Of a stretch of 64,000 nucleotides of DNA, positions 9,201 to 43,249 are shown in pieces. A model generated the notes under the pieces. That model worked only from the letters and a program-made list of their open reading frames with translations, was not told the origin of the DNA and did no database searches. The stretch's first letter is position 1; each line of letters opens with the position of its first letter. The stretch spans positions 71,610,001 through 71,674,000 of the forward strand of contig OZ320319.1 in assembly GCA_976226885.1 (NCBI GenBank), given 5' to 3'. The position numbers and the translations under genes were made by a program. The stretch is from Iphione sp. A-MEVVRFRX5 (lineage: Eukaryota).

Positions 9201-10419
9201 GTACGTATGTCCTATTACGAAGCTGGCATGACTTGACAAAACAGACCATGGAATGCCAGGCGTTATAATCAAATGGTACCAAAACCAAGTTCTGAAATGA
9301 CCCCTGTCATGCTCTAAATTAGCAAGCTATGGCTGCTGATGATGACGGCTTTGGGAACAAGGGGAGATCGTAGGGACAATGAAGAGGTTGTACAAGACTG
9401 TTTTCGTGTAAGTGTGTACATTCTTAACAGCTCTCACCCTTACTCCTCAATCTCGTTCACTCTCCTCATAGTCCTTTACACATTTACAGTCTCACAGTGT
9501 GGGGCATGCAGTGTGTGTAGGAAATTGTAGTATTTATAGATAGATAGATAGATAGATACTCACGAGAAAGACTTTTTAAATGTATATTCATGCTATATTC
9601 ATATGAAATTTGACAAAGTTTGACACCAGTTATAATTATTTATATTGCCTAAACACACTAGTTGAAGTAACCTACACACACCAGTTACCTACATATATCA
9701 ATCTTACTAAGGCCAAACTTCATGCACCCATGTACCTTGTAAGACGGTATGATGCAGTGGACAGGCTCTCCATGTCACCATTCTTGTATATATCCATGTA
9801 GCATGCTTACTGTTTAAACATCAGCTTGTCAACCATGCATGGTTCCCATTCCAAACACACATACACAGGTGTGAAAACACAGTGAAATGAAACATGTTCC
9901 ATTAATAAAAATCATGCTACACACAGACACACAACATGCTACATGCTACACAGATACATGGAGACACTCCTTGCGTTATTCTATATGCCCAAATACCATA
10001 CTGGTTCATGCATGAACATGCAACATGGATACAGGTGTGTATTGAAATTAGGCCTTTAGGTATTACATCACCTATGCTGTGCCAATACGTCCAACTCTGT
10101 GTGATTGTACAGACATGTCTTACCCTGTGTGATTGTGGCAACATGTTCCGCCTTATGCGCCTGTGGTCAATAAGCCACACCATGTGCATTTGCTGATATT
10201 ACTCACTACCAGCCGACCCAAAATAATACTAACACAAAATAACAATACAATACAAATTCCAATGGCGAAGACAATCTTTTAATTCTGAGAACATAATAGA
10301 CAATTGTAGCTACCTCTTGAGGTCGAAGTACATCAAAAATACATATTGTCTCTAGAGACAGAAGCAAATATACATGAACTCTGATGGTCTCACGCCGAGA
10401 TGTGTGGGTCTGGAAGGAA

Positions 10420-12363
10420 TTAAAATGAAGAAATATGGGATATCAGAGATGAAGGGATTGAAACACGTATGATATGAGGATGTTGTGAAATGAAATTCTT
10501 AACAACTGCCCTATACTTGGGCGCTGTAGGAAGACGTGAGAGGGCGTCAGCGACGATCATTTTTTCTCCCGGCAGATGAGAGAAAACCAAGGAAACATTG
10601 AATCTGGCAGCTCTATACCAGACTGCTCTCAAAATTCTGGATAAGAAATAATCCTTGGACCTTCCTGTACTAAGGACTGAAATAGTGGCACTATTATCAC
10701 AGATGACTTCGATCCTAGAGTTCTGGTTATGAGGGCCGATGAAGAGATGAATGGCCACAGCAGTATTAAACGCCTCGAGCTGAGAGATGGGCAGATGAGC
10801 TAGGGAGGGGGGGGTGGACTGAGTGTAGTAGTAATTTGAGTTATATGCCCCCATGCCTACGAGGCAGGCGTCACAATATATGACGTCGGTGATTACTGGT
10901 GGAGTGATGAGGCGCACGCCGTTGAAATGTGGGAGGAATACAAGAAACCATCTCAAATCTCTTTTCACTGGATCTGTAAGTGAAACAAATGAGGAGTCGG
11001 GACGTGAAGCCTGTCGTATCTCATGTAGGATGGAGTTGATGAAGTAGCGGGCTGGTGGGGAACACTTCACTATGTGGTTGATTAACCCGACCACGCTCTG
11101 AGCCTTCTTAAGGGGAATGGATGAGAGGAAAATAATGCTTTGTATGGATTGAATGAGGTCTTGGATTTTCTGTTGAAGAATTGACATGGTAAGTGTGTTG
11201 GTGTCGAATGTGACGCCGAGCCAGGTTAGATTTCGTGTAGGGAGGACACACTTGTCGTGTGCGAGTTGTAGACCTAAATTGGAGATAAGAAGCTGTGCAT
11301 AGGAAAAGGCTTTGGAGATTTGTGAGTATGAGGGTGAGATGAAAACATAATCATCTAGATATGCGAATAGGGTAACATGTGGGAAATTACATGAAATATG
11401 TTTGACAATGACGGAGGAGAGTTCTTGAAGCAGGAGAGAGGAGTAGCGAGTTCCAAACGGTAGGGAAAGATCAAGGTAGAAATTACTGTTAAATTCAAAT
11501 GGGAGGAGGGGCCAATCAAGGGGGTCGACAGGAAAGTATCTATATGCACGCTTGAGGTCGAGAGAAGCTAGGTATGGTTTTTGTGAAGAGGTAGAAATGA
11601 TATGAGCAAGATCTAATGGGGATGGGAGGTTGACTTTTAGGGGTATTGAATAATAGTCATTCTTTGGGATGCCAGCATTCACACCTGAATGTGAGAGGTC
11701 GAATATTACTCTCCTCTCGTGGGAATCTTTCTTGGGCCTGGTCATTATAGGATTTAGGACTTGAGGATGGGTGAATGGGTGTTGATCAAACGGGCCCCTG
11801 ATAGCGCCCCATGCGAGCTCAGTACATACATATTTGGTAATGTGGGCCTCGTCCTTGGGATCAGTGGGGTACAACGACACAGGGAGAGGCAGCGTGTCGT
11901 TAGTGTAGCCAAGGGGAAAACCGTAATTCAGAAAATCTATGAATATTGTGCCTTTATGGCCTAATGGCAGTAGTATATCAGACCAATTGCTAATGTTCAG
12001 TTGAGACTGCAGGAGCAGCCTTGCTTCCATAAAATTGGGTAGTCCAGTGGATCTGACCATAGAGTAGGTATCGGGCAGATCAGGTGGGAGGTGGGCTGTA
12101 TGGAGAGGCCAATTGAAAATTCGATGGGCCAACATCTGGTGGTGGGATCTGGAAATGGAATTATTGTCATTAGTTGTAGGGAAGTCTTGGTTGTGGGCCC
12201 AGTCATCGAAGTAATCTGCATCGTGCTGACAGTCGGATGGAATCACCACTCTTGGTTGTCCGTTCGTGCTGGTCGTTGGTCTCTGGGCTGATTCGCTGTC
12301 CAGGGCTTGGGCTGCTGACGATCCTGAAGATTCTGCTGCTGGGCCTTCTTTTTGGACCGACAT
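10420..12363 (-). CDS. Reverse transcriptase/RNase H (DIRS/Ngaro-like), 647 aa, uninterrupted
   Basis: RT motifs LDLKRAYR, LPFG and YLDD (FAYLDDYVF). RNaseH motifs YCDAC, QLEAFN, CDNSAT and HLPGEKMIVADALSR. Confidence 0.9.
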   Translation of the reverse strand: MSVQKEGPAAESSGSSAAQALDSESAQRPTTSTNGQPRVVIPSDCQHDADYFDDWAHNQDFPTTNDNNSISRSHHQMLAHRIFNWPLHTAHLPPDLPDTYSMVRSTGLPNFMEARLLLQSQLNISNWSDILLPLGHKGTIFIDFLNYGFPLGYTNDTLPLPVSLYPTDPKDEAHITKYVCTELAWGAIRGPFDQHPFTHPQVLNPIMTRPKKDSHERRVIFDLSHSGVNAGIPKNDYYSIPLKVNLPSPLDLAHIISTSSQKPYLASLDLKRAYRYFPVDPLDWPLLPFEFNSNFYLDLSLPFGTRYSSLLLQELSSVIVKHISCNFPHVTLFAYLDDYVFISPSYSQISKAFSYAQLLISNLGLQLAHDKCVLPTRNLTWLGVTFDTNTLTMSILQQKIQDLIQSIQSIIFLSSIPLKKAQSVVGLINHIVKCSPPARYFINSILHEIRQASRPDSSFVSLTDPVKRDLRWFLVFLPHFNGVRLITPPVITDVIYCDACLVGMGAYNSNYYYTQSTPPSLAHLPISQLEAFNTAVAIHLFIGPHNQNSRIEVICDNSATISVLSTGRSKDYFLSRILRAVWYRAARFNVSLVFSHLPGEKMIVADALSRLPTAPKYRAVVKNFISQHPHIIRVSIPSSLISHISSF

Positions 12364-13220
12364 TGGTCCAATTTGTGTTCGAGCTGCTTATTGTGGAGAA
12401 GAAAGCAAAACGGACATATATGAGAGAAGGTCACGTCGTTGGCAATGTGAGTTGAGGGCTCAGTACATTTTGCACTGAACCAAGCAGGGCAAGGGACGAC
12501 AGAGTCTTTCTGTAGGGTGGGGCCATCACGATTGGCCCTGGTATGAGCATTGATACACCGTTGTTTAATTGACTCGATACGTTGGGTATCTGACCATGAT
12601 AGCCTGTCGTTCCCCGTAAGGTGCCAAATTTCGACAAGCCATTCCCTGACAGGGGCCCAGCCGCTGGCCTGAACCTCTTCTGCGGTGTCTCTGATATGAG
12701 TGATGAGAGTCATAATGTCTGCAGGATATACAATGGAGGGGTCAAGTAATATACCCATGATAGAGGACACATACTGAGGAAAAGTAAATTTTCTCAAGTC
12801 CGGCTTATCAGTCTCTGACATAACAATGTAAGAGGCGGGATTCGGGCGAGCCATTTTCTTACCTACAGTTTCTAATGCTGCCGGGTACATATGAGTGAAA
12901 ATCTCTTGTATCTTGGAGGCTGCCTCAGTTTTCAAGGCAGCTGGTTGAGGTGGAGGTGACGAATCGTTGTCCTCGTCCTCGTGTACGTCTGAACTTGAAC
13001 CGGCCACAGCAGTCGACTGACCTTCGGCCATTTTGGCCGCTGCAGCACGAGTGGTCACTGTCGTGGTTGAAAATTTCTTGGTCTTTTGGGAACTCTTGGA
13101 CTCCTTGGGCTCCTTGGGGTCCAATTTGTCCAAACGGTCCTCGATGGCTTTCATCTTTTCAAGCATTTTGACCAGAATTTCGCCTTCCTCCTCGGTGACA
13201 CCTGACTTTGGGTCCGGCAT
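12243..13220 (-). CDS. Gag-like ORF1 of the DIRS/Ngaro element, 325 aa from the ATG at 13220
   Basis: Intact ORF overlapping the RT ORF by 121 nt. It contains GWAPVREW...W and a Cys/His cluster (CPAWFSAKCTEPSTH...HICPFC...H....C). The ATG context is GCAACAATG; the ORF track starts at an upstream GTG. Confidence 0.75.
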   Translation of the reverse strand: MPDPKSGVTEEEGEILVKMLEKMKAIEDRLDKLDPKEPKESKSSQKTKKFSTTTVTTRAAAAKMAEGQSTAVAGSSSDVHEDEDNDSSPPPQPAALKTEAASKIQEIFTHMYPAALETVGKKMARPNPASYIVMSETDKPDLRKFTFPQYVSSIMGILLDPSIVYPADIMTLITHIRDTAEEVQASGWAPVREWLVEIWHLTGNDRLSWSDTQRIESIKQRCINAHTRANRDGPTLQKDSVVPCPAWFSAKCTEPSTHIANDVTFSHICPFCFLLHNKQLEHKLDQCRSKKKAQQQNLQDRQQPKPWTANQPRDQRPARTDNQEW

Positions 13221-14244
13221 TGTTGCGGCCACTTATTTTTGAAGTGACCTGTACGACAGCGAAGCAATGAATGTGATCACCTATATGCTAAATATATCCA
13301 CGCAGCGGCCTCAAGCCCGATACAACAGGTGGCGGGTCTGTCTGCATCTCGTAATACCTTGCAATCCCCTAGGGAGTAGCGTACAAATATCCTAACCTAA
13401 TTGCCTGTGACCACATGTCCCGCCATATTAGACTCTGCCGACATTTCAGCATAGTTAACTTGTGAATGAAAAAAAGGAATCATACCTCAATACATACCCT
13501 CACCCACACGCACACACTCATGAACGCTTATTCCTATATGTTCGAACATTCACGCTTAAAAGAGGCTGATACATTTCTTGTAAGTTCGCATGTCAACACT
13601 GCAGAAGCAGGAAGTAAGACAATGCCACAAACAAAACTGGTACTCATCCATCAAAAGCCATTTAAAACGCAGAAGATCGTTTCATTGGTCTTACTTCCTC
13701 GTGAATGGGTGGTGTTGAGGAGAAGAGATATGAGGTCAACAATGGGGAATTTTTTTCTTCCAGAGGAGATAGAAAACCAAGGAGTAGTAAGTGAGGAGGG
13801 AGAAGGAAGTAGCAGGTCATGTGGCTAATGATGGGAGAGTTTAACAATATGAATTGAAACGTAAGGAAATGAAAGGAATCCATCTTCAGAAAGAGAAAGC
13901 GGAAGGTAAAAAAGGACAGGGTGTTCTGTTAGGCAGGATGAACCAGAAAAAAACAAGGGCAGAAGGAAGTAATGGGGAAGGTACATGATGTAGATAAACA
14001 AGGAAGTCTAAATACAGATAATACATGAAAGATGTGTACATTTAAAATATGTACCATACATGTACAATTCACCCTGTGACTGTCACATCCTTGCTCCTAA
14101 TGAAGCTGTCCCATTTTAGGGTTGTCTATAAGTCTTAAGTGCACCATTGTGTTGGCGAACATTCAGGCCGCTCAGGCCAAAAGTGTTCCCCTATCTGAGG
14201 TGTCCCTTATAATGGTGTGTCCCAGTACTACGATCGACCATTTT

Positions 14245-29821: not shown

Positions 29822-30792
29822 CTTTACTTTTCCTAATCCGTTTTCTTCCGTCTACCGTTACATTTCCTTCATTACTTTCAACTTTCCACAGTCTTTCCCT
29901 CCTTTCTCACCTTCATTTTCCTATACTCTTCATGTTACCTTTCCTTCCCTTCGTATCTATCCCCTCTCTTCCCTATTCTCTCCTTTATCCTATTCTGATC
30001 TTCCTGTTCGCCAACACTCTCTTGCTCATTTTCTTCTCGCCACTGCTGAGGCCTGTTCCTCTAGCACGGATCACCCTTTGACCGCACCTCGTCGCTGTGT
30101 CTCAACGCGCCTCCAGGCATCCCGGATCTAACGCTGAAGAACCAAAAATTCCCAGGGTACCATGTTTTTTTCGTCCCAGAGTAAGCAATCTGTGTACGTA
30201 TCCCTATTGGCACACTTTGAATTTGGATATACAGCCCTGGCTACGCAATACCACTTCCTCATCGCCAATCATCTGTCTGCGGGGTATAGAGCCAATCCTA
30301 CATGTGGACCTTCATCTTGGTGACAACTACCAATTTAAATACATCACGCAGAGTACTGATTCTCATGAGAAGTTAAGTGCATTTTATGGTGCCATCGATA
30401 CAGTCATTGCTCCCGAGAGCTACAGGTTACTTTATTCTTGAGGAAGAGGACTGGCTTTTAGACGTAATCCTTTGATTAGCCCTCCCATTGAGGGTTATCC
30501 CAAATAAATGTACCAGATATTATTTCAATTGAAATTAAATGCTGCATTTTGACGGTTAACTCCTCTTAGCTCTTTTTCTCGTGCTTATACTGCCCATTTT
30601 CTACTGCTCATTATGTTTTATGATCTGCCTTATCCATCTCCTCTATAAAATAATACCGGAGCATGACAGGGGCAGCGCAAGGCCGAATAGAGCCGGTTTA
30701 TTCTTCATACTCGAAGGGCTTCTGTTGGATAACATTACTGGTGTGCAGCTGTTAGCTTCCAATGGGAGACGACCAAAGAATCTCTATTATAT

Positions 30793-31340
30793 TGTAGGGT
30801 AGCGTAAGGAGGGCTAGACGTACTACATGTACTTGAGAAGGGCCCAAGCAGTTTAAGGAGAAGAAAGTAGGGGCCCGAGCATATAGGGGAGGGGCCCGAA
30901 CAACTGTAGTGGGGCCCAACCACTTTTGTACAAGGGCCCAGCTGTTGCACCGAATGCCCCCTACTTTGACTGACAGATGAGACCAGAAAGAGCAATGTTG
31001 TATCAATTTTATTCCATATTTGGATACAGTCACCGGGTCACATGACGTGTATACTTGCTATAAATAAGAGCCCTGTGTGGCAAATAAACCAGTCTGCACT
31101 TGGATTACGTTGTGGCTGTTGTCTCTTCAGGGAATGCTAGGAACAGATACTCACTTGAACTTACCTTAGGGTTAGCCTATTGGAGTAACGTATTGGATTA
31201 ACACATGAGGATTATTAAGCCAGGTAATTAACTACCATAGGAGGATTTACCAAGTGGGAATAACAACACACATACGACACTTGGGGATATTACTTTATTC
31301 CAAGGAGTAACTCAAAGGAGATTTAAATACGCAGATTACA
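30793..31340 (+). repeat. 5' LTR (548 bp)
   Basis: Runs TGTAGGG...ATTACA, with TATAAATA at 31059 and AATAAA at 31083. Matches 42092-42639 except at 3 positions. Confidence 0.98.
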
Positions 31341-31341
31341 C

Positions 31342-31360
31342 TGGTGTCAGAAGTGGGATT
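31342..31360 (+). promoter_or_regulatory. Primer binding site complementary to the tRNA-Leu 3' end
   Basis: TGGTGTCAGAAGTGGGATT is the reverse complement of AATCCCACTTCTGACACCA, the 3' end of eukaryotic tRNA-Leu. It starts 1 nt after the LTR. Confidence 0.9.
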
Positions 31361-31371
31361 CCCCAGACAAG

Positions 31372-32235
31372 ATGGCTACAGCTTATGTCTCTGTGGATGA
31401 TGAAGTGCAGATTCGTGTCACCAGCCCGGCACCTGACACAGAAGAGGAGGAGCACTTTGAGATTGCTCCAGAAGAGCCACTCAAGATCAACACTTTGAAG
31501 CCGGAGCGGTTTGACGGTAAGACTGTTGATTGGGACAGCTGGATCAGTCAGTTTGCGGAGTGGGCAACCGCTTGCAGGTGGGGGGAGGACACAAAATGTT
31601 CTGCATTGACCCTGTCCCTGACTGGGACAGCCCGCATGTACTATGGGGATCTCCCTGCCGAGGAGAAGAGGGACTATGCTAGCAGGGTGGCCGCCCTTGA
31701 GCGAAGATTTGGCAGAAGGAGGGATCGCGTTGTGGCAATGCAGAAGCTATCAGGCATGAGACGTCAGAAAGATGAAGATGTGAGGGACTTGGCCGATCGG
31801 GTTAGGAGGCTGGTACGTACAGCCTACCCCGACGTGACGGGGGAAACTAGGGAATTGGCAGCTGTCGCGGCATTCCAGAGGGCCCTAGCAGACTCCCTCC
31901 ACTTGAAGTGCCTCGAAGCCAAGTGTACCACGCTAGATAACGCCGTCCAGGTGGTGGAGACTCAGGAACGTTTTCGGGCAAAGGCAATTAACACCGTACA
32001 GCAGGCTCCCATTCAGACCCCTATCGCCTCAACCCCAGCTGGGTGGAAAAAGGAGATGGAGGAGCTCATAGCTCAGGAAATCCGGAAACTGAGGGAAGAA
32101 GCTAAGACCCCAGAGGAGGGAAAGCCAAGGAAGCCCCGGTTCACTGGATGCTATCAGTGTGGACAACATGGCCACTTTAAGCGGGATTGTCCCCAGCTAC
32201 CCGCATCGGGAAACGCCAACCAGCCGGCTCAGTAG
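31372..32235 (+). CDS. gag: Gag (287 aa) with capsid-like region and CCHC knuckle
   Basis: KPERFDG...W...W...L..SLTG.A capsid-like motif and CYQCGQHGHFKRDC zinc knuckle. Confidence 0.95.
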   Translation: MATAYVSVDDEVQIRVTSPAPDTEEEEHFEIAPEEPLKINTLKPERFDGKTVDWDSWISQFAEWATACRWGEDTKCSALTLSLTGTARMYYGDLPAEEKRDYASRVAALERRFGRRRDRVVAMQKLSGMRRQKDEDVRDLADRVRRLVRTAYPDVTGETRELAAVAAFQRALADSLHLKCLEAKCTTLDNAVQVVETQERFRAKAINTVQQAPIQTPIASTPAGWKKEMEELIAQEIRKLREEAKTPEEGKPRKPRFTGCYQCGQHGHFKRDCPQLPASGNANQPAQ

Positions 32236-32933
32236 GCCAGGAGGGCGCGGCTGATCCAGTCCCCATGGGGTGTATAATGGAACAAGGCCAGGGGCCACAC
32301 TTACAGGTAAGCGTGAGGGGTGGCAACTATATGTTTCTGGTGGATACAGGGGCCGAAGTTTCCATTGTTAACCCTGAGGTGGTCCCTGGCCTAGAAGGTG
32401 ACAGGGGGGAGATCCGGATTACTGGGGCGGGTGGGCATGTAATCCCCACACTAGGAAAAGAGGTCCTAGAGGTAGAAGTAGCAGGTAAACAGTTTTCCCA
32501 TCCTTTCTTGATAGCTCAAATTGGGGAAGAGGGTATCTTGGGGAATGATTTCTTAAACCACCATCAGGCAGTCATAGACCTGGCTCATGGGAGGGTGTGT
32601 TTTGATAGTAGGTCCGGGGGGCAGCGATGCCCTGAGAAGCCGACTGCCCTGCGTGTGGCCCATGATGTGTCTTTGTCCCCAGGCGAGGGGACGGCTGTCC
32701 CCCTGATTAACCCTGGGGGTGCATCCTTCCTGATAGAAGGGGTGGATGAGAAGCAAATGGGGAGGGGGATCTTCGGGATTAGGAGCATTGTTAGAGCCAC
32801 CCTCCCCCTTTGGAATTTGGGAGATCGGGATGTGATGCTGACGCAGGGGACCCTATTAGCCATGGGGCACCCAACCTGTTGCTCAGAAGTCACGAAAGGG
32901 GCCCCTGAAAACAGGGTCCGGATGATTCAGTAG
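32208..32933 (+). CDS. pol: Aspartic protease region of pol, in the -1 frame relative to gag
   Basis: FLVDTGAEVSIV active site and GILGNDFL motif. A G GGA AAC slippery site lies at 32208-32214. The ORF ends at TAG 32931-32933. Confidence 0.92.
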   Translation, partial: GKRQPAGSVGQEGAADPVPMGCIMEQGQGPHLQVSVRGGNYMFLVDTGAEVSIVNPEVVPGLEGDRGEIRITGAGGHVIPTLGKEVLEVEVAGKQFSHPFLIAQIGEEGILGNDFLNHHQAVIDLAHGRVCFDSRSGGQRCPEKPTALRVAHDVSLSPGEGTAVPLINPGGASFLIEGVDEKQMGRGIFGIRSIVRATLPLWNLGDRDVMLTQGTLLAMGHPTCCSEVTKGAPENRVRMIQ

Positions 32934-35858
32934 GTGTCTGGGGCAGTGTTTGAGGGGTTATTGGCCCAGACAGCAGGACGACTCCAAGAGGGAGAACAGG
33001 TAGCCCTTGCCAAGGTCCTAAGGAAGCATAAAGCTGTGTTCGCTCGGTCGAAGGGGGACCTGGGGCAGACCGACCTGGTACAACATAGGATCTACCTACT
33101 AGACCCCCACCCTATTAAGCAGCCCCCTAGGCGGCTCCCCATAGCCCGGCGGCGAGAGGAGCGTGAGCTGGTGGCGGAGATGAGGGCGCTGGGGGTGATC
33201 CGGGAGAGCAGTAGCCCTTGGTCCAGTCCGGTGGTCATGGTCCGAAAGAAAGACGGCACCACCCGTTTCTGCGTTGATTATCGGAAGTTGAACCAGCAGA
33301 CGAAGGTCGACGCCTACCCCCTGCCACGGATAGATGACTCACTGAGCACGTTGGCAGGCGCCCGGTACTTCTGTTCCTTGGATTTGGCATCAGGCTACTG
33401 GCAGGTCCGGATGCACCCCGAGGACCGCGAAAAAACGGCTTTCTCTACATCCGTAGGACTGTACGAGTTCACCGTAATGCCGTTTGGGTTGGTGAATGCC
33501 CCGGCCACGTTCGAGCGGTTGATGGACACAGTATTACGGGGTCTTGCCTGGGAGCAGTGCCTCGTGTACCTGGACGATATCTTAGTGTTTGGGCGAGATT
33601 TCCCAGAGACACTAGAAAGGCTGGACCGCGTGCTAAGTCGAATTGCCCAGGCTGGGTTGAAGCTCAAACCAACCAAGTGCCAGTTGTTCTTGGAAGAGGT
33701 CGGTTTCCTCGGACACCTTGTCTCGCGAAAGGGGGTGGCGACTGACCCTGCTAAGACCAAATGCATCGTCGACTGGCCGACCCCACGATGCACTACTGAT
33801 GTTCGCGCCTTCTTGGGGATCTGTTCCTATTACCGGCGTCATGTGCCCCGGTTTGCCAATGTAGCCGCACCCCTAAACCGTCTTACCAGTGCAAGGGTGA
33901 GGTTTACCTGGGGGCCAGAAGAAGAGTCTGCATTCCAAGAACTGAAACGGGCACTGAGCACCAGTCCCATCCTCGGCTATCCCCAACCTAATGGGAGGTA
34001 CTACTTGGATACGGACGCCAGTAACGTGGGGCTGGGCGCTGTCTTGGCGCAGGAACAAGAGGGCCAGGAAGTAGTGCTAGCCTACTATAGCCGGAGCCTC
34101 AGCGAGGCAGAACGACGCTACTGCGTCATGCGACGGGAGCTCCTTGCCGTTGTGGCAGCTCTGAAGCACTTCCACTTTTACCTCTATGGGCAGGATGTAA
34201 CCGTGCGCACTGATAACGGGGCTGTCAGCTGGCTCAGCCGGATAAAGGACCCAGAGGGACAGCTAGCCCGTTGGTTGGAAAGGATTGGCCAATATCGATT
34301 GCAGCTCGTTCATCGTGCAGGGCGACTGAATTCCAACGCTGACGCTCTGTCTCGTCGAGTTTGTCGGCAGTGCCAACAACCCCACCTTGAACCTGAGGAA
34401 GAGGAGGTGATTCCAGTAAGGGTGGTGACCCGCAGCCAGACTACCCCCGCTCCGGGTCGGGAATTACGTCGGGACCAGCTACAAGACGAGACTGTAGGGC
34501 CAATCCTGCGACTGAGAGAAGAGACCACGGATCAACCTTCATGGGAAGCAGTGTCTGCCCTGCCAGCCGCGGCGAAGGCTTTATGGAGACAGTGGGACCG
34601 GCTGACGGTCAACGACGGGCTATTACAGCGGCGCTGGTATGGGCTGGGGAGCGATCCCACCCGGTTGCAAGTAGTACTCCCTGCAATACGACAGGAAGGG
34701 GCCATCAAGGAAGTGCATGCTGGACGAACCGGAGGACACTTGGCCACCGATCATACCACCTATTTGGTGTCGCTTGCTTACTATTGGCCAGGGATGCGAA
34801 AGGATGTTGAAGCCTTCTGCCGTCGCTGTCACTGTGCCCTCCTGAATATCAGTCCTCAGAAACCGCAAACTGCATTGAAGACTTACCTGCCCGGTGAGCC
34901 AATGGAACGCTGGTCAATGGACGTGGCGGGGCCCCTACCAGAAACGAAGAGGGGGAATCGCTATGTCCTTATGGTGGGTGACCATTTCACCAAATGGATA
35001 GAGGCCTTCGCCATGCCCGACCAGAAGGCCAGCCGGGTAGCCGCTCTGCTAGCTGAAGAAGTCATTGCACGATACGGGTGCTTCTTAGAGATCCATAGTG
35101 ATCAAGGCACCAATTTCTGCAGTGAAGTCCTGGTGGCGCTGTGCCAGTATTTGGATATAAAGAAGACCCGGACTACGCCGCGCCACCCCCAGAGCGACGG
35201 TTTCATTGAGAGGAGCTTCCGTACTATGAGCCGAATGATAAAAGCCCATTGCCATGAAGTGCGGGATGATTGGGACGAGGCTTTACCGTTTTTGATGATG
35301 GCCTATCGGGCCTCGCCGCAAGCTAGTACTGGGTATACCCCGAACTTCCTGATGTTTGGGCGGGAGATCATCCTCCCAGTGCATGCGTGGGACGGACTTC
35401 CACGACACACTATGGAGGAGCGTCCCCTCCCGGAGCAGGTGGCTGATGTCGGGCGTCGGATGCAGGCCGCGTACAAGGAGGTAAGACGCCATTTGCAGCG
35501 GGCCGCGAGGACCCAGGCCCGGGCGTACGACCGCCGAGTGCAGGGGCACCCATTGCAGGATGGGGACGCGGTTTGGTTGCACGAGGCTCAGCCCCCAAAG
35601 GGGCGTAGTCCAAAGACACACTTCCCTTGGACAGGGCCCTGGGCAGTAGTCAGGCGGCTCGATGACGAGCGTTTGGTGATACAGCGGACGCAAAAGGCGA
35701 AGCTGAAAGTGGTCCATAGGAACCGGCTACGACGTTACCAGGGGGACGATCTTCCCCGGTGGATCCTGACACTAAGGAAGAAGATGGTAGCGTCGCAGGA
35801 GAATGGAGAGGTCAAAAAGAAGACTTCGGGCGTGGGGGGAACCAATCCCCCGGAGTAG
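32934..35858 (+). CDS. pol: RT-RNaseH-integrase region of pol, same frame as the protease, after a single TAG
   Basis: RFCVDYRKLN, LDLASGYWQ and YLDD (RT); DTDAS, RELLA, TDN and NADALSR (RH); H..GH..YYWPG..CRRC, MDVAGP, HSDQG, DGFIER and WTGPW (IN). Confidence 0.97.
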   Translation: MSGAVFEGLLAQTAGRLQEGEQVALAKVLRKHKAVFARSKGDLGQTDLVQHRIYLLDPHPIKQPPRRLPIARRREERELVAEMRALGVIRESSSPWSSPVVMVRKKDGTTRFCVDYRKLNQQTKVDAYPLPRIDDSLSTLAGARYFCSLDLASGYWQVRMHPEDREKTAFSTSVGLYEFTVMPFGLVNAPATFERLMDTVLRGLAWEQCLVYLDDILVFGRDFPETLERLDRVLSRIAQAGLKLKPTKCQLFLEEVGFLGHLVSRKGVATDPAKTKCIVDWPTPRCTTDVRAFLGICSYYRRHVPRFANVAAPLNRLTSARVRFTWGPEEESAFQELKRALSTSPILGYPQPNGRYYLDTDASNVGLGAVLAQEQEGQEVVLAYYSRSLSEAERRYCVMRRELLAVVAALKHFHFYLYGQDVTVRTDNGAVSWLSRIKDPEGQLARWLERIGQYRLQLVHRAGRLNSNADALSRRVCRQCQQPHLEPEEEEVIPVRVVTRSQTTPAPGRELRRDQLQDETVGPILRLREETTDQPSWEAVSALPAAAKALWRQWDRLTVNDGLLQRRWYGLGSDPTRLQVVLPAIRQEGAIKEVHAGRTGGHLATDHTTYLVSLAYYWPGMRKDVEAFCRRCHCALLNISPQKPQTALKTYLPGEPMERWSMDVAGPLPETKRGNRYVLMVGDHFTKWIEAFAMPDQKASRVAALLAEEVIARYGCFLEIHSDQGTNFCSEVLVALCQYLDIKKTRTTPRHPQSDGFIERSFRTMSRMIKAHCHEVRDDWDEALPFLMMAYRASPQASTGYTPNFLMFGREIILPVHAWDGLPRHTMEERPLPEQVADVGRRMQAAYKEVRRHLQRAARTQARAYDRRVQGHPLQDGDAVWLHEAQPPKGRSPKTHFPWTGPWAVVRRLDDERLVIQRTQKAKLKVVHRNRLRRYQGDDLPRWILTLRKKMVASQENGEVKKKTSGVGGTNPPE

Positions 35859-36871
35859 CCGGAGCCAGGACGAATTGGGGGTATGAGCACCCAGGTGGCA
35901 CTCAAAAAGTTCATGGAAGGTGGTGGAACACCTGGAGCGTGTAGCGCTCAAAAGTTCCAGTAGGACATGACGGACGTCCTGAGGATCATCGGCATCCAAA
36001 ACGAGTCCGTGTAGGGGTAGACTCCCTGTAAGCGTCCAAAAAGTTCTGGGAGGTGAAAGCGAGGAGAGCCTGGAGCTGCTAGAAACTTAGAATGCTCCTC
36101 GGAAGGAGAGAGTAGACATCCTGGGGGCCATGCGGGCCCTGAAAAGGTCTAGGAGGAGGACGGACATCCTGGGACGCTTAAAAAGGTCTGGAGTGGGAGG
36201 ATGAACATCCCAGAGTGCACAAAAGAGCTTATGGAATGTGCAGGGCTATCGGAGAGGGCCAGGAGTTAGACATCGGAAGACTGGAGAACGATCTCCAGAG
36301 GGGTCGATAGGTAGGCCCCTGAGAGGAGCAACCGAGAGGGTGACTAGGACGAGAACAGACTGTTCCACAAAGAGTTAGGTTCCCCCCCCTTTTACCACCA
36401 AGGGGTGGGAGAGAAACCGGCCTCCACACCGTCGCCGCACGGAACGCTATCCAAACTGCTGGTCATCCCCGCTGAGGGAACGCTTGGGCCAGGACGTAGC
36501 CCATGGCTTCCGCAAGACAAGAGATCCATCGTGGGCCTGGTGAGGAAGAGTAGCACTACGTATGGATAGCAACGGGCTGGCCAAACCACGGTCTGAACCA
36601 AGCTGCCGTCCCTTTCCTCTAGGAGAAGGCGGAGACCAAGATGCTGTCCACTTCCTCTGGGGGCACCTGCTGCTCGGCTGCTAGGATAAGGTAAAAGATA
36701 ATCATCCCATCTAACCGACGGCCCCTGACATTAGGAAGTAAATTCCCCCCCTTTTTCCCTCTGAAAGGACCGACAAAGAGAATCAAAGGTTAGGAAATTT
36801 ATTCATCAGCAACAGTAAAAATATACACTTGAGTATATACAATGGCTACATACAACATGCAAGCCCCAGGG

Positions 36872-38082
36872 TTAGTCATCCTCCACCAGGATGGGGTGGC
36901 ACGCCAAATCCCCTGCCCGCACCTCCAGCAACCAGTTCACGATCCCAGTGGGCAGGTCATCAACCAAGGCCCGGCCAAAGAGGGGGCCTGTCTCGGGGGA
37001 CCCCACTGGTGTTGGGCGCGATGGGGTGTCGCAGGAAGACAATGAGTCTGGTGACGGGGAACGCGGGGAGGAGGACTCGGAGGAGCCGTCCGAGCTGAGG
37101 ACGGGAAACCAGTCGCAATCGGAAGAGGCTTGTCGGGGTGGTGTCCGCGTTGAGAACAACCCAAAAGATTCGTCAGAAGAGGAGTCGTAGTGAGGACTCC
37201 AGGGATCGAGCATCTCTGTTGTCCATGACCCCGGAGACCAGGAACGCTCGCTGGGCGAGGAAACGAAGGGCCGGGCCGGTGGAGACGACGGGATGTATGC
37301 AGGGGAGCGGTCGTCCAGCTGGCTCAGGTAGGCCTCTACGGAGCGGGGGCTCACCTCGGGAGATACCGCCTCCGCCCGGACCGAGTAACAAGGGGAGGTG
37401 GGAGGAGCCAGCGGCGTCATCGGAATGGCCGAACATGGGGAAGATGGCTCGATGGGGTGCACACTGATGGTAACCCGGTGGTAGGGCCCAAAGAGCTGTA
37501 CTTGGCCCGGAGCAGGAATGAACAGAGGGTCGGTGAGGACTGGGTAGAGTCCGAACACCCGGATCATTGGTCCGGGCGTCCCTATGTCCAGGGACCTGTA
37601 GTAAGTATCCGGCGGGAAACTCCTGGGAGGAAGAAAGAAGAAAGAAGGTTAGAAAAAAAAGAAAAAAAAAAAAAAAAAAAAAAAAAAGAGTTCTCTTACC
37701 TGGTGAGCAACCAACTGACAACTGGCAACAGTAGGAAAACCAGCAGGTCACAACTGGTAATCGTGGACGGCTCCAAAGGAAACGGAGACTCTACCTATCA
37801 TCCGCTGGAGGGTACCCTGCTAACTCCCGGGCCAAGGCCTCAATGTCAGGGGACTGACACGGCTGGGGCAGAGATAGGGATGCTCTGGAATATCAGGAGC
37901 AAGGAAAGTGTAAGCAACCATTCTTCCCTCACCCCCCTCCTGTTTGGAAATAGCAAGGATACACAGCAAAAAGTATGCAGCACTAAGAAATCTTACCGGT
38001 CGGACCACACAGGATCCCTGGACTCCCAAGGGAGAAAACATCCATGCTGGGTCATGCCTGTGAGATAGGGAGGTAATTCCAT
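36872..38082 (-). CDS. Predicted spliced antisense accessory gene, 308 aa (exons 38082-37997, 37884-37795, 37622-36872), Ser/Pro-rich, function unknown
   Basis: TATAAATA at 38158-38151 and a GCCATGG start. GT-AG introns 37996-37885 and 37794-37623 keep the frame (86+90+751 = 927 nt). AATAAA at 36803-36798. Confidence 0.6.
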
Positions 38083-38150
38083 GGCTGGAAGGCCCAAGTG
38101 TACGCCTAAGTGTCTTCGCGACGACTGGCGCAGCAGACCGCGCGGTGCGA

Positions 38151-38900
38151 TATTTATAGACGGGTACAACTGTCGCTCGGGCCCCGTGAGAAACACAGAC
38201 ACCGCGCGGAGGGCCCGACCGGTACCTGAACGCTAGCTCGCTCGGGCCCCGTGTAGAAAACGAAAACGAGCAAAACGGGCCCGATCGATAAGCAGACTGG
38301 GAGAAAAAGGTTTTTCGTGGCAGAAAAATATTCGTAAAATTACCTACAGCGAAAAAGGGCCCGACCAAGTACGAGGTTACGCTCGGGCCCCCAAACCGGA
38401 AGAGGCCGAAAGGTAAACATCCGCCGAGCCTCGTTTTGATCTCCAGAAGCAGCAGACGAGTTTTCGTGTCAATAAAAACTGCAAAATTTAAGGAACTAAA
38501 GAAGAATCAACCCGAAGAGAAGGAGGAAATGGATCAAGACCCATCCTAGCATCATCAAGGACGTCCCTTTGAAGAGGGGGGAGGAAGCAGAAGCCAGCTT
38601 CGTGGGAGAAAAGACCGACCGGCGTTGGGGCCCGACAAGCAGAAGACCTGAGGGCCCGAGCGGAGGAGTACGCTGATCTGTGTGAGTGTAGCGAATCTTC
38701 CCTTCTGTCGGGCCCTGCCTCTGTTGTTTTTTCGTGGAGTACGCTGATCTGTAGCGAATATCCCCTTCTGTCGGGCCCTGCCTCTGTTGTTTTCGTGATG
38801 CAGCACGGGCCCGAGTGATACCGCGATTGTTGTACCTTTGGGGGGCCCGAACACCGAGCATTCGTTGTGATCCTATAGGGCCCGAGCAGCAGGGCCCGAG
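38151..38900. promoter_or_regulatory. Candidate internal bidirectional promoter with 14 GGGCCCGA motifs
   Basis: Non-coding interval between two divergent ORFs. All 14 GGGCCC hexamers in it extend to GGGCCCGA or TCGGGCCC. Confidence 0.6.
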
Positions 38901-38964
38901 CCCCAAGCCTTGTCAAGACCTCCAGTAAGTAGTTGTCTTCCCCGTACTACCTGGCCATCCCATC

Positions 38965-40932
38965 ATGCCGCGTCCCATCATTGGCATGCCAAAGGTAAAG
39001 AGGGTGTTGAAGAAGGATGACCCCATCCCAGAGGGGACTAAGTTGTGTCAACTCTGCACTGTAAGGCGGCCCTTTTTTCCCGGGGATTCCATGGAACGCC
39101 ACCTGGATGCAGTCCACCGGGGGAAAAGGAGCCGGCGCATGTACTGCCTGTACTGCCCAGGTGTGATAGGGGATGTGCATTCCTGGGCCGCGCATGTGCG
39201 GCGCTACCACCCGTGGGCTGCTCAAATGGGCCTGGTAGAGCCGAGGTATCGGGATCTCTACGACGTGACACCCAAGGCGGACCCGCACGTACCTGATGAC
39301 GAGCTGACCCCGATCATCTTGAGAGCTCGCACTCTGAGGGCCGACGGATGGGCCCTGGGGGAGGCAGAAGCGGAGGACATGTTGGCCAACGCCCCGCGTC
39401 GCTCCTCGCCCCCACGTGTAGAGCGGGAAACCCGAGCCTCGTCAAGGCGGCGGAAGGCCTCGGCCGGCACCCCGAACGAGAGGAGTAAGCCTGCCAAAAG
39501 AGGGAGGAGTACAGCAGTCGTCCCACCCACTACACCTCCACTGGGTCAGGCGGAGGGTCACGGGGATTCCCCGGCAAGGGTGCGACAGCCTAGCCAGGAA
39601 GTGGACGTCCCGTATGCCGCCGATCGCCCGCCCAGTATGGCTACCCCCACCTTGTCCAAGGCCCCCTCTACAACCTCTGCCGCTACCCCCCGGGGGAAGA
39701 GTAGAGCCGCAAAGAGAAGGAAAGGGGCGTCGGTCGCCCAGCCTACTGCACCTCCCCCGGGTGACGGGGAAGGCCGTGAGAACCCCCCAGCAAGGACGGG
39801 CCAGCCCTGCCAGGGGGCGGTCGCCCCTTACCCCGCCGGTCATCTACCCAGTGCGGCCACCCCTGCCTTGCCTGGAGCCCCCCCTTCAGCTGAAGGGACA
39901 CCAGCTACTGACGACCCAGGTGATGCCGCCCCCACCTGGAGGCTACCCGCAACCTGGGATCAGGGGGAGGTTGATGCAGTGGTCTCGCAACTGCAGCGAG
40001 CAGTAGAACCTCCCCTGGTAGGCCTCCTGTCGGCCGGCGACACGACCCAGACAGGTAGGGCCCCAGCTACGCGGGACCCCCTCTTATGCCAAGGGGTCGC
40101 TACTCCCTGCCCAACGTCGGGAGAGTGGAGCGGGAGGCCTTCTGGCACGTACCAACCATCTACCCCGTCTCGGGACACTGTTCCGGGGTGGGGAGAGCTG
40201 GAGATGGGCCCCCTCGGCCCAGGATTTGTGCTCTCAGGGACTGAGGAAACCCTACCGGGTCCCTCTACGTCCGTGCAGGGGCGACTACCCCGTATGGCTC
40301 AGCGCCTCTTATCGCCTGACCGGGCTGGCCCTGCCGCTGCCCGGGCGATGGACATCCTCGATGGGCTAGCCCCACCCTACTTCACAGTCGCCCGCGCCTC
40401 TACCCCCCCTGCACCTGTCCGCCTGCCCTCCACTATGCCGTGGCCACCTCGGGGTTGGGAGGCATGGAGCCCCACCCATCGGCTAATGGCCTGTGTCTCT
40501 GTTGCGTGGGTATTATTTCTGGCAGAGGGAGACGTGCAGGCCCCCAAGTCCTTGCTGACACCGTTGCAGCGGCACCCCTGGCTATTACTCCCCGGGGTCA
40601 CCATCCCCACTGCGGCCGACTGGGGCAGCTTGGAGGCCACCATTGGGCGACACAATCGGGCGGTGGATGCAGCGGAGGGATTACTAAAAGGTTTGCAGGC
40701 CCAAGTGGGGGATCAACAGAAGCCACCGGTGGAGGCCCGACAATGGAGGCAGGAGGCCAGCCTAGCGAGGTCGGCACGCGAACAGCGTAACCCAACCCTG
40801 GCTGACATCTGTGCGTTTGCTCCGCCCTGGCAAAGTCGGCTTGACTTGCAGGACATTTGGCCAGAGGCAGCACTACCGACCCACTCCGGCTCCCAGGCAG
40901 AGTACTCCCCCTTAGCATCGCGCCAACAGTAG
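38965..40932 (+). CDS. Accessory ORF, 655 aa, with two N-terminal C2H2-like zinc fingers, basic patches and a Pro-rich middle
   Basis: C-x2-C-x14-H-x4-H (CQLC...HLDAVH) and C-x2-C-x12-H-x4-H (CLYC...HVRRYH). The ORF is uninterrupted and lies inside the LTR pair. No signal peptide is evident. Confidence 0.8.
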   Translation: MPRPIIGMPKVKRVLKKDDPIPEGTKLCQLCTVRRPFFPGDSMERHLDAVHRGKRSRRMYCLYCPGVIGDVHSWAAHVRRYHPWAAQMGLVEPRYRDLYDVTPKADPHVPDDELTPIILRARTLRADGWALGEAEAEDMLANAPRRSSPPRVERETRASSRRRKASAGTPNERSKPAKRGRSTAVVPPTTPPLGQAEGHGDSPARVRQPSQEVDVPYAADRPPSMATPTLSKAPSTTSAATPRGKSRAAKRRKGASVAQPTAPPPGDGEGRENPPARTGQPCQGAVAPYPAGHLPSAATPALPGAPPSAEGTPATDDPGDAAPTWRLPATWDQGEVDAVVSQLQRAVEPPLVGLLSAGDTTQTGRAPATRDPLLCQGVATPCPTSGEWSGRPSGTYQPSTPSRDTVPGWGELEMGPLGPGFVLSGTEETLPGPSTSVQGRLPRMAQRLLSPDRAGPAAARAMDILDGLAPPYFTVARASTPPAPVRLPSTMPWPPRGWEAWSPTHRLMACVSVAWVLFLAEGDVQAPKSLLTPLQRHPWLLLPGVTIPTAADWGSLEATIGRHNRAVDAAEGLLKGLQAQVGDQQKPPVEARQWRQEASLARSAREQRNPTLADICAFAPPWQSRLDLQDIWPEAALPTHSGSQAEYSPLASRQQ

Positions 40933-42078
40933 GTGGAGATTGTAGCCGCTACCTTAGAGACCTTTCATGGGGAAGGGACCGACACAGGGACATAGGGGTG
41001 GGGTATATTTTGTGTAATCTAACGGTAACCCCGACTGTTCTGCTGGAAGGCTAAAAGAAAGAGGACTGTACCTCCCAAAAAGAGAATTTTTGATGGATGC
41101 TGTGCTCAGGTGTTACCAGATAATGAGGTGTTGTCGGACTCTGTGGGGGGGATTTGATGTTGTTTATCCAAGAACAGAGGGAACTGGCGGATAAGGCATA
41201 CCAGGTGTTAGGTGATTACTATAAGTCGTTCTGTGATCAAGGTGTTGATTATATGTAACCACAAAGGATACTGATGACGTTTCTGTAGGGGGGGGGCAAA
41301 ATGGATATGCGCCATACTGTGATTTGAGAAAAGAAAACTACAGAAGAGGACTGTACCTCCCAAAAAGAGAATCCGTGTAAGTGAAGTGATTAGATGTTGC
41401 CGGCCTATGTGCCGCTGGTGGTGTTGACAGTACTTACCCAAGCGAGTGGTGGCAAAGCAGTGTGATACCAACATGACGGGTGTTGCCAAGCGATCAGGAG
41501 TGATTTGATTATGTACCAGTGACGACGTTAAGGATGTTAATAGTATTTACCCAAGATTATGTGCCATTGATGATGTTAAGAGTGTTGGCAGTATTTACCC
41601 AAGTGAAAAGTGGCAAAGCGGTGTGATAGCGACATGACGGGCGTTCCCAAGTGATCAGGTGTGGCTAGATTATGTGACTGTGATAGACGTTACAATTTCA
41701 CCACCCCGTTACGATCTGATCAGCTGTTGTTATCAAATATGCCACTACTACTGTTATAGCTTATCATATTACTGTGAACAATCAATTCTCGTCTTGTTGT
41801 GATTTTCTCGGGTTGTTACTCAGACAGGCATGATGGCCTTGTGTTTACCACTGTTTTGTTAAAAATTTGGTCTGTTGATGCTATCAAGTGTGATATTGTT
41901 AGAGGGGCCTATTTTCAAGTTGCTATCAAGTATGTCGTTACGATTTTCTCAGGGTGTCCCCCAGATGTTGTTTTCCTAGCTGTGATAGGTGTGGCCGCCT
42001 CGCGTTCGCCGTTGTTCTGTTATGATTTGATCCGTTAGTGCTATCAAGTGTGACATTGTTAGAGGGGCCTATTTTTTT

Positions 42079-42091
42079 AAGCAGGGGAGAG
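42079..42091 (+). promoter_or_regulatory. Polypurine tract
   Basis: AAGCAGGGGAGAG immediately precedes the 3' LTR. Confidence 0.85.
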
Positions 42092-42639
42092 TGTAGGGTA
42101 GCGTAAGGAGGGCTAGACGTACTACATGTACTTGAGAAGGGCCCAAGCAGTTTAAGGAGAAGAAAGTAGGGGCCCGAGCATATAGGGGAGGGGCCCGAAC
42201 AACTGTAGTGGGGCCCAACCACTTTTGTACAAGGGCCCAGCTGTTGCACCGAATGCCCCCTACTTTGACTGACAGATGAGACCAGAAAGAGCAATGTTGT
42301 ATCAATTTTATTCCATATTTGGATACAGTCACCGGGTCACATGACGTGTATACTTGCTATAAATAAGAGCCCTGTGTGGCAAATAAACCAGTCTGCACTT
42401 GGATTACGTTGTGGCTGTTGTCTCTTCAGGGAATGCTAGGAACACATACCCACTTGAACTTACCTTAGGGTTAGCCTATTGGAGTAACGTATTGGATTAA
42501 CACATGAGGATTATTAAGCCAGGCAATTAACTACCATAGGAGGATTTACCAAGTGGGAATAACAACACACATACGACACTTGGGGATATTACTTTATTCC
42601 AAGGAGTAACTCAAAGGAGATTTAAATACGCAGATTACA
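42092..42639 (+). repeat. 3' LTR (548 bp)
   Basis: Copy of 30793-31340, followed by the ATAT TSD. Confidence 0.98.
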
Positions 42640-43249
42640 ATATCATTTTCTAGTGGCCAGATAGATGTGGTTTGGGTCGTAGGGCAGTGAGAAGCTAGTT
42701 TAAAGGATTCCAAATGCACAGGTGAGCCTCATTGAGGTTTATCCGCATCAAGAGCAGTTTTCCTATAGTAACGTATCACTGTCTTTGGCTAAGGATGAAA
42801 TGCCAGGTAGTTTAGGAAATGGGAGAGTGACTACTCTGGCTGTGAATTCCAGGTACCGACAAGTACCGTATACGAACTGCGACGAGCCCTACTCATGACT
42901 TCGTCTGTACTGTGTAGTTCATTTGAGAAAATAACTGATATTTTCATCAACCAGTCTGTGTCTTTTCACTCTTCCTATAACGTTTTCAAAAGAAGTTTAT
43001 ATATCCGAAATATTCAATTTCCGAATCCGAATGTTGTCATTTGGTCAAAATACATTTAAATTATATTCAAAAACCGAATGGTAAGCCTTGGAGAGCTGAC
43101 TGCAAGCCCAGTCACTCTCCCCCAAGTTCGCTACCGTTTGATGAGCTTGCACCTCAAAACAATAACATAAGAGCTACATGCAGGTTGTGACCTCCTACAG
43201 TAAGAGACAACACAGGCAGAGAACAAAGAAACAGTTACATTCTCCCTGA

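Follow-up and report, generated by a model that had tools for sequence, protein, structure and literature searches.

A predicted intron-containing antisense gene under purifying selection in Ty3/Gypsy retrotransposons of Iphione sp., and its possible role in a two-gene control module

We analyzed a 64,000-nt stretch of DNA from Iphione sp. A-MEVVRFRX5 (assembly GCA_976226885.1, contig OZ320319.1, positions 71,610,001 to 71,674,000 of the forward strand; hereafter the window), which contains an 11.8-kb Ty3/Gypsy long terminal repeat (LTR) retrotransposon at 30793-42639. Between pol and the 3' LTR, this element carries an antisense protein gene whose exons, but not introns, evolve under frame-specific purifying selection. 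The gene is very probably expressed as a protein, by way of a spliced transcript that starts at a TATA promoter of its own. Its introns have very probably come through reverse transcription because the spliceosome would not remove introns that face antisense from the sense genomic RNA, an argument that rests on established splicing and retrotransposon biology. The 6.2 kb between pol and the 3' LTR also house a 655-aa sense open reading frame (ORF), arranged head to head with the antisense gene and termed the partner ORF here. Our best reading of the whole, to which we give an even chance, is that the two genes may form a control module for the element's own transcription, with the antisense protein as one half.

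A preliminary description of the window had proposed the antisense gene from the sequence alone, and the structural elements it named are present. The TATA box TATAAATA lies exactly at 38158-38151, and the ATG at 38082 stands in a GCCATGG context. Three exons of 86, 90, and 751 nt, the last ending in TAA, are separated by GT-AG introns of 112 and 172 nt, and the longer intron contains a long T run. The exons sum to 927 nt, that is 308 codons and a stop, with no internal stop in the expected phase of any exon. Downstream of the TAA, with 68 nt between stop and signal, an AATAAA is found at 36803-36798, and it is the sole antisense AATAAA in the 10.7-kb internal region. The exon 2 acceptor, originally chosen among several AGs, is the right one: exon 2 measures 90 nt in all 28 sibling copies analyzed below and in two of three old relatives, and the selected frame is the frame of this acceptor. 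The gene was also called complete, but that model leaves out a second donor in intron 2.

A DNA search of the same genome gave 42 matches, of which 30 loci were aligned; 28 span the gene (L001-L028; family A), and 2 with internal deletions were left out. Frame and exon lengths are kept among these siblings. TATA box and ATG are intact in 27 of the 28, exon 1 is 86 nt long in 27, and exon 3 measures 751 or 754 nt in 24. The single shared exon indel is 3 nt long. Intron lengths vary (110-120 nt for intron 1, 141-189 nt for intron 2), and of the 18 intron indels shared between copies, 14 have a length not divisible by 3 (6/7 in intron 1, 8/11 in intron 2). We counted variants common to at least two copies, scored against the commonest codon of each column. 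In the predicted frame, synonymous and nonsynonymous shared variants number 5 and 2 in exon 1 (p = 0.005), 6 and 1 in exon 2 (p = 0.002), and 51 and 31 in exon 3 (p = 1e-11, omega 0.22). Neither the introns nor the remaining frames of any exon show a synonymous excess (lowest p 0.058), and purifying selection, for which the preliminary description had suggested looking across family copies, is thus seen in each exon and only in its predicted frame. Shared variants have an omega of 0.08-0.22 and private variants one of ~0.5, closer to neutral; selection therefore acts during replication or transposition of the element. Conservation of the GT and AG dinucleotides does not discriminate within family A, where other intronic GT and AG are equally conserved, and the finding of 0 intron-less (processed) copies in the genome is uninformative.

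A genome search with the exon 3 protein returned 214 matches, from 150 scored of 1675 candidates. We examined 39 elements, 29 of them picked through exon 3 and 10 through the partner ORF, together with 40 shorter copies, and found eight families (A, that of the window, and B-H) plus three old relatives of A. Identity to the window ranges across families from 70 to 98% in pol and from 42 to 85% in exon 3. All families share the TATA box, an ATG exon with a phase-2 donor, the poly-T tract, an acceptor before the same conserved start, and the AATAAA. The antisense gene is present in nine of the ten elements picked by their partner ORF; the remaining element has an internal deletion. An intact exon 3 occurs in 24/28 copies of family A, 21/21 of B, and 18/21 of C, and variants concentrate at third codon positions in family B (117 versus 33 and 19) and in family C (55 versus 17 and 20). 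Families B-H have no intron 1; their single 5' exon measures 53-92 nt and, for C, D, and E, fuses the start of window exon 1 with the end of window exon 2 in one frame. These one-exon equivalents thus fix the splice phases of the window gene independently. Three independent lines, namely frame constraint confined to exons, fixed exon lengths, and single-exon equivalents in other families, support a selected, intron-bearing antisense protein gene and with it the earlier proposal.

The old relatives of A have exons of 86 and 90 nt (exon 2 is 89 nt in one decayed copy), while similarity in intron 1 is gone (z ~0). It is likely that intron 1 was gained in the A lineage, since the exon 3 tree groups A with its old relatives in a single clade (support 0.998, midpoint root only). 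An origin of intron 1 as a duplicate of intron 2 is unsupported (36 comparisons, best z 2.6).

The second donor lies in intron 2 just 5' of the poly-T tract, in 28/28 A, 21/21 B, and 21/21 C copies and also in families D-H. Its U1 match equals or exceeds that of the productive donor in seven of eight families. Reading past the productive donor leads to an immediate stop, and the stretch between the two donors is without frame constraint. Use of the second donor would give a peptide of 18-60 aa with its stop 90-290 nt before the last junction, and the message is predicted to be a substrate of nonsense-mediated decay. Some use of the weaker donor is required, because conservation of exon 3 begins with its first codons and no ATG in it is conserved. 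We infer by analogy that the second donor may be a regulated splicing switch: P-element IVS3 likewise has tissue-gated splicing with a truncated product by default (PMC6719617), although there an intron is retained in a transposase gene and here a competing donor is predicted in an accessory gene. Recursive splicing at the second donor was rejected, as the AG/GT form is absent in B and C. The last intron of family B (L037) contains a 34-nt frame-shifting cassette exon candidate with a strong acceptor and donor, constant in 21/21 copies, and an additional AG-G-GT site upstream.

The window element (Table 1) has direct LTRs of 548 bp with TG...CA ends that are 99.45% identical, and, like its siblings, a 4-bp target duplication, a primer-binding site, and a polypurine tract. 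A Pfam scan gave the order gag, then protease (PR), reverse transcriptase (RT), RNase H (RH), and integrase (IN), and no chromodomain in pol. The closest named relatives of RT-RH are animal Gypsy polyproteins (~50-65% identity). The pol of the window copy is interrupted by an in-frame stop at 32931-32933; 28 other elements are open there, and readthrough at this PR/RT stop was rejected because the stop is private to the window copy. An env-like third ORF was likewise rejected, the gene being antisense rather than sense downstream of pol. The primer-binding sites of families D, E, and H differ from those of A, B, C, F, and G. Several direct repeats of 44-51 nt occupy the spacer before the polypurine tract (41290-42075), and the LTRs of families B-E contain tandem repeats of ~130-170 nt. 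Target duplications at the LTR flanks of L110-L128 and L033-L108 are skewed to GTAC, ATAT, ATAC, and GTAT-type words, which suggests a site preference of the integrase.

Table 1. Features of the retrotransposon in window coordinates
Feature	Position	Strand	Remarks
Target duplication ATAT, left	30789-30792
5' LTR, 548 bp, TG...CA	30793..31340	+	five GGGCCC palindromes 30840-30934; TATAAA 31059; AATAAA 31083
Primer-binding site	31342..31359	+	presumably of tRNA-Leu type
gag with CCHC zinc knuckle	31372..32235	+
pro-pol (PR, RT, RNase H, integrase)	32181..35858	+	broken in window copy
Polyadenylation signal AATAAA of antisense gene	36798..36803	-
Exon 3	36872..37622	-	249 codons + stop; conserved predicted beta domain of ~60 aa, disordered Ser/Pro-rich acidic middle with Trp motifs, conserved C-terminal block with SIM-like end (SIM, SUMO-interacting motif)
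Intron 2	37623..37794	-	phase 2; poly-T tract of variable length
Second donor D3, CAG/GTAAGA	37694..37702	-	junction 37700/37699, inside intron 2; counterpart in all eight families
Exon 2, 90 nt	37795..37884	-	ends in GYPP.DD motif common to single 5' exon of other families
Intron 1	37885..37996	-	phase 2; limited to family A and its old relatives
Coding exon 1	37997..38082	-	86 nt from ATG
TATA box of antisense gene	38151..38158	-
Inter-gene region, 14 GGGCCC palindromes	38161..38964	.	17 per kb versus 0.9 per kb in gag-pol
Partner ORF, 655 aa, head to head with antisense gene	38965..40932	+	two N-terminal C2H2-like Cys/His pairs; conserved C-terminal domain
Polypurine tract	42079..42091	+
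3' LTR	42092..42639	+	99.45% identical to 5' LTR
Target duplication ATAT, right	42640-42643

The antisense gene appears to encode a new protein family. An alignment search against 5.8 billion proteins, with 8000 candidates of 72-487 aa, gave no homologue of exon 3 at E <= 0.001, and an exon 3 profile had 0 matches among 1.84 billion representatives. There was no usable Atlas match and 0 PDB sequences for exon 3, exon 3 of five families had no Pfam match (TRP28, PF04195, included) at E <= 0.1-1, and Rfam returned 0. A scan of viral contigs gave one match, on the strand opposite to a 319-aa ORF in a phage-like gene context, which we regard as chance; a scan of metagenome contigs also gave one match, with the same statistics. 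In two fold models, a five-stranded N-terminal domain of ~60 residues is predicted with a predicted local distance difference test score (pLDDT) of 68-83, followed by disorder or low confidence. It has no fold match in PDB or BFVD, which is not proof of a new fold. The protein is acidic (isoelectric point (pI) 4.2-4.8 in intact copies) and rich in Ser/Thr-Pro sites, and lysine is nearly absent, with 5 Lys versus 231 Arg in 17 exon 3 products compared to 208 versus 759 in 16 partner ORFs. The lysine depletion is real but modest per sequence; lysine deserts have been linked to ubiquitin-system and viral proteins (PMC10169902). Conserved islands are a Trp block (SWS...W...DPW) in the disordered region and a C-terminal block. 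The latter contains a hydrophobic-then-Ser/acidic motif in all eight families, invariant within 24 intact A and 18 intact C copies. No signal peptide or transmembrane segment was evident by eye in the alignments, to which no predictor was applied. A beta-TrCP-degron-like motif of families A-E was dropped from consideration, as it is absent from F-H. A predicted complex between the antisense protein and the partner ORF's two domains scored 0.00, which gives no answer.

Two Cys/His pairs are invariant in the partner ORF of all families, and its C-terminal domain is conserved throughout. In a genome search, 150/150 scored candidates matched, of 1980 candidates, and a database alignment search gave no homologue. 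Family F partner ORFs contain VIDLT-type SIM-like motifs. Between the two genes lies an array of short palindromes that is a candidate enhancer/promoter array. In the window element, the GGGCCC palindrome occurs 14 times between the genes and 5 times in the LTR. Across families, the palindromes are family-specific words found in the inter-gene region and the LTR and nearly absent from pol, and they are common to both places in A, A', B, C, D, F, G, and H; for family C, the sharing refers to two of the four elements listed, one being without an LTR call. Two non-autonomous derivatives with near-identical LTRs have lost parts of the element: L142, a young copy, lost most of pol and kept both accessory genes, and L148, beside or inside a family D element, lost pol and the antisense gene and kept the zinc-finger ORF.

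In family C, gag, pol, and one half of the LTR are of A type (92-98% nucleotide identity) but the accessory region is unalignable, and the family shifts position between trees. Its elements L043, L045, L047, and L049 are young, abundant recombinants, in which window-type gag-pol and U5 half of the LTR are joined to an accessory cassette and a U3 of foreign origin. A single template switch downstream of pol would explain family C, which therefore shows interchangeability of the cassette, not co-adaptation.

We propose the following working of the control module. The zinc-finger protein would bind the family palindromes in U3 and between the genes, which we consider reasonably probable. With slightly less assurance, we favor the antisense protein as a stable, phosphorylated, disordered adaptor that would act on transcription or silencing of the element rather than as part of the particle. 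The stronger second donor may yield a truncated, decay-prone message by default and the full protein may be made only where the cell type favors the weaker donor, a step for and against which the chances are balanced. It is doubtful, though conceivable, that the antisense protein engages SUMO-marked silencing factors through its C-terminal SIM-like motif, with its lack of lysine shielding it from ubiquitin or SUMO attachment. The fullest version, a 'complex-retrovirus' cassette in which a palindrome-reading zinc-finger factor and a spliced, lysine-free, SUMO-binding counter-silencer are donor-gated and exchangeable between gag-pol cores, is unlikely to hold in every part. If it is true, the element would encode a protein that counteracts SUMO-dependent transposon silencing in an animal.

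Several observations weigh against the control module. No homologue, family, or fold anchors a function for the antisense protein, and it has no basic nuclear-localization signal. Low lysine is partly expected, as the A-poor strand predicts 2-3 Lys per protein. The C-terminal motif has a three-residue hydrophobic core, and the SIM consensus is a four-residue hXhh/hhXh core with an acidic flank (PMC8616421). Such a SIM-like motif also arises in ~10% of shuffles per family, and the families are related and hence non-independent. The zinc-finger call of the partner ORF is weak (Pfam E 0.03-0.09; Atlas feature hits 0.90-0.94), and no TATA box is found upstream of this ORF. Its N termini vary widely among members of families C and D, whose palindromes remain alike, and tight co-evolution of the two is therefore weakened. 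Family E has its array between the genes only, without an 8-mer shared by promoter and LTR.

The antisense gene could instead act as a brake. The antisense protein, or perhaps its RNA, would then dampen the element, oppose the zinc-finger activator, and limit copy number or keep latency, a reading that differs from the preferred one mainly in the sign of the effect, which is beyond what sequence can settle. Head-to-head genes around one motif array would make a natural feedback loop, and in deltaretroviruses the spliced antisense regulatory genes hbz (HTLV-1) and aph (HTLV-2-4), which likewise share a retroelement with a transactivator, repress the LTR (PMC10186651). Those genes, however, start in the 3' LTR of enveloped retroviruses, whereas the window TATA box at 38158 lies ~3.9 kb inside the LTR start at 42092, the window element has no env-like ORF, and its antisense protein matches neither bZIP nor any other family. 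The predicted transcript moreover ends 0.9 kb short of pol, so that it would not pair with gag-pol codons. We regard the brake as a minority possibility.

Quite unlikely, in our view, is a post-transcriptional helper whose beta domain would bind genomic RNA, or whose Trp motifs would bind Argonaute or deadenylase pockets, to aid export, translation, or escape from slicing guided by small RNAs. The conserved Trp block in a disordered region would fit such a role, as would the top structural rows of the first fold model, which are Pur-alpha (Z 4.2, rmsd (root mean square deviation) 2.6, 49 aligned). This Z is below typical background, however, and the better domain model did not repeat it (best Z 2.7); the protein is acidic, and families F and H have lost part of the Trp block.

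That the gene is a captured host gene, either a passenger or one serving the host, is improbable. Its introns, TATA box, and poly(A) signal resemble those of a cellular gene, and capture in reverse orientation would retain introns. The difference in omega between shared and private variants points instead to selection during transposition and largely refutes the passenger version; none of the 1.84 billion representatives is a host homologue, and all 39 genome places examined are LTR-element copies (150 of 1675 candidates scored). We give still less credence to an obligatory micro-exon that ends at the second donor and would make the 308-aa product a minor form. The window copy does have a 15-nt in-frame candidate, family B has its constant cassette, and one frame of the inter-donor stretch has a marginal synonymous excess (p = 0.058), but a 1-nt insertion inside the 15-nt candidate is common to four family A copies, three of them with intact genes, and none of the cassette candidates, at 34 nt in B, 28 nt in C, and 11 nt in H, would keep the frame. 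An artefact, be it a shadow frame of a sense gene or chance signals in a GC-rich region, is refuted: the wobble-sharing sense frame also has low omega (0.18-0.27), but all three sense frames over exon 3 contain stops in each of the eight families while the proposed frame has none, and where intron sequence no longer aligns, the splice, TATA, and poly(A) signals are found again.

We compared the control module and its antisense gene with known systems. Extra genes in antisense orientation, placed between pol and the 3' LTR, occur in the plant elements Grande, RIRE2, Retand, and PvRetro13 and in fungal Boty, where their function is unknown (PMC7264820, PMC11963269, PMC8365987). The window gene shares with the plant aORF-3R genes (maize Grande gene23, rice RIRE2, Silene Retand/TRP28, PvRetro13) its position between pol and the 3' LTR and its presence in most copies. 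It differs by its animal host, by the absence of TRP28 or another Pfam domain, by its pairing with a sense zinc-finger-like ORF, and by its introns and second donor, the latter conserved; neither PMC7264820 nor PMC11963269 uses the word 'intron' in its main text. The gene brtn of Boty/BcGypsy1 (Botrytis, Sclerotinia) is likewise an antisense extra gene in a non-plant Ty3/Gypsy element (PMC7264820, PMC8365987), for which the accessible text reports no partner ORF such as the window element has. Its host element belongs to the fungal chromovirus lineage, whereas the window pol has no chromodomain. The brtn gene is said to have an intron. VANC of the Arabidopsis VANDAL elements resembles the proposed zinc-finger factor as an accessory factor paired with a short motif at high copy within its own family (PMC6719617), and the window element indeed contains a family-specific, high-copy short motif. 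VANDALs are plant DNA transposons, however, without sequence link to the window genes, and binding or demethylation by the window proteins is only putative. In their accessible text, PMC8220671 only cites known antisense extra genes and PMC13547354 treats accessory proteins of plants only. In the literature covered, no Ty3/Gypsy element of an animal was found to carry a spliced antisense protein gene; subscription papers, Repbase notes, and supplements lay outside this scope. The layout is richer than that of known antisense extra genes.

Among LTR retrotransposons, antisense extra genes have long been orphans without an assigned function, described from plants and a fungus; here we present an animal case with hundreds of young copies, at least eight families, and a putative new protein family. 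Spliceosomal-type introns, one of them lineage-specific, have apparently been carried through reverse transcription, together with a conserved candidate splicing switch. Candidate target motifs of the partner ORF can be read from the sequence, and natural families with different motifs, along with a natural cassette swap, make function directly testable. Repeat annotation based on homology and long ORFs misses such genes.

Elsewhere in the window, the minus strand at 10420-13232 contains overlapping long ORFs, one gag-like of 329 aa and one of 655 aa with an RT domain (Pfam RVT_1, E 8e-14), a layout suggestive of a DIRS/Ngaro-type element; no recombinase ORF was seen at 8300-10600. A search of the genome for the SUMO family gave polyubiquitin-type arrays and partial matches only. 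Three polyubiquitin-like arrays of 228-nt repeats in long open frames lie at C13:58.62 Mb, C1:114.97 Mb, and C10:84.33 Mb (G000).

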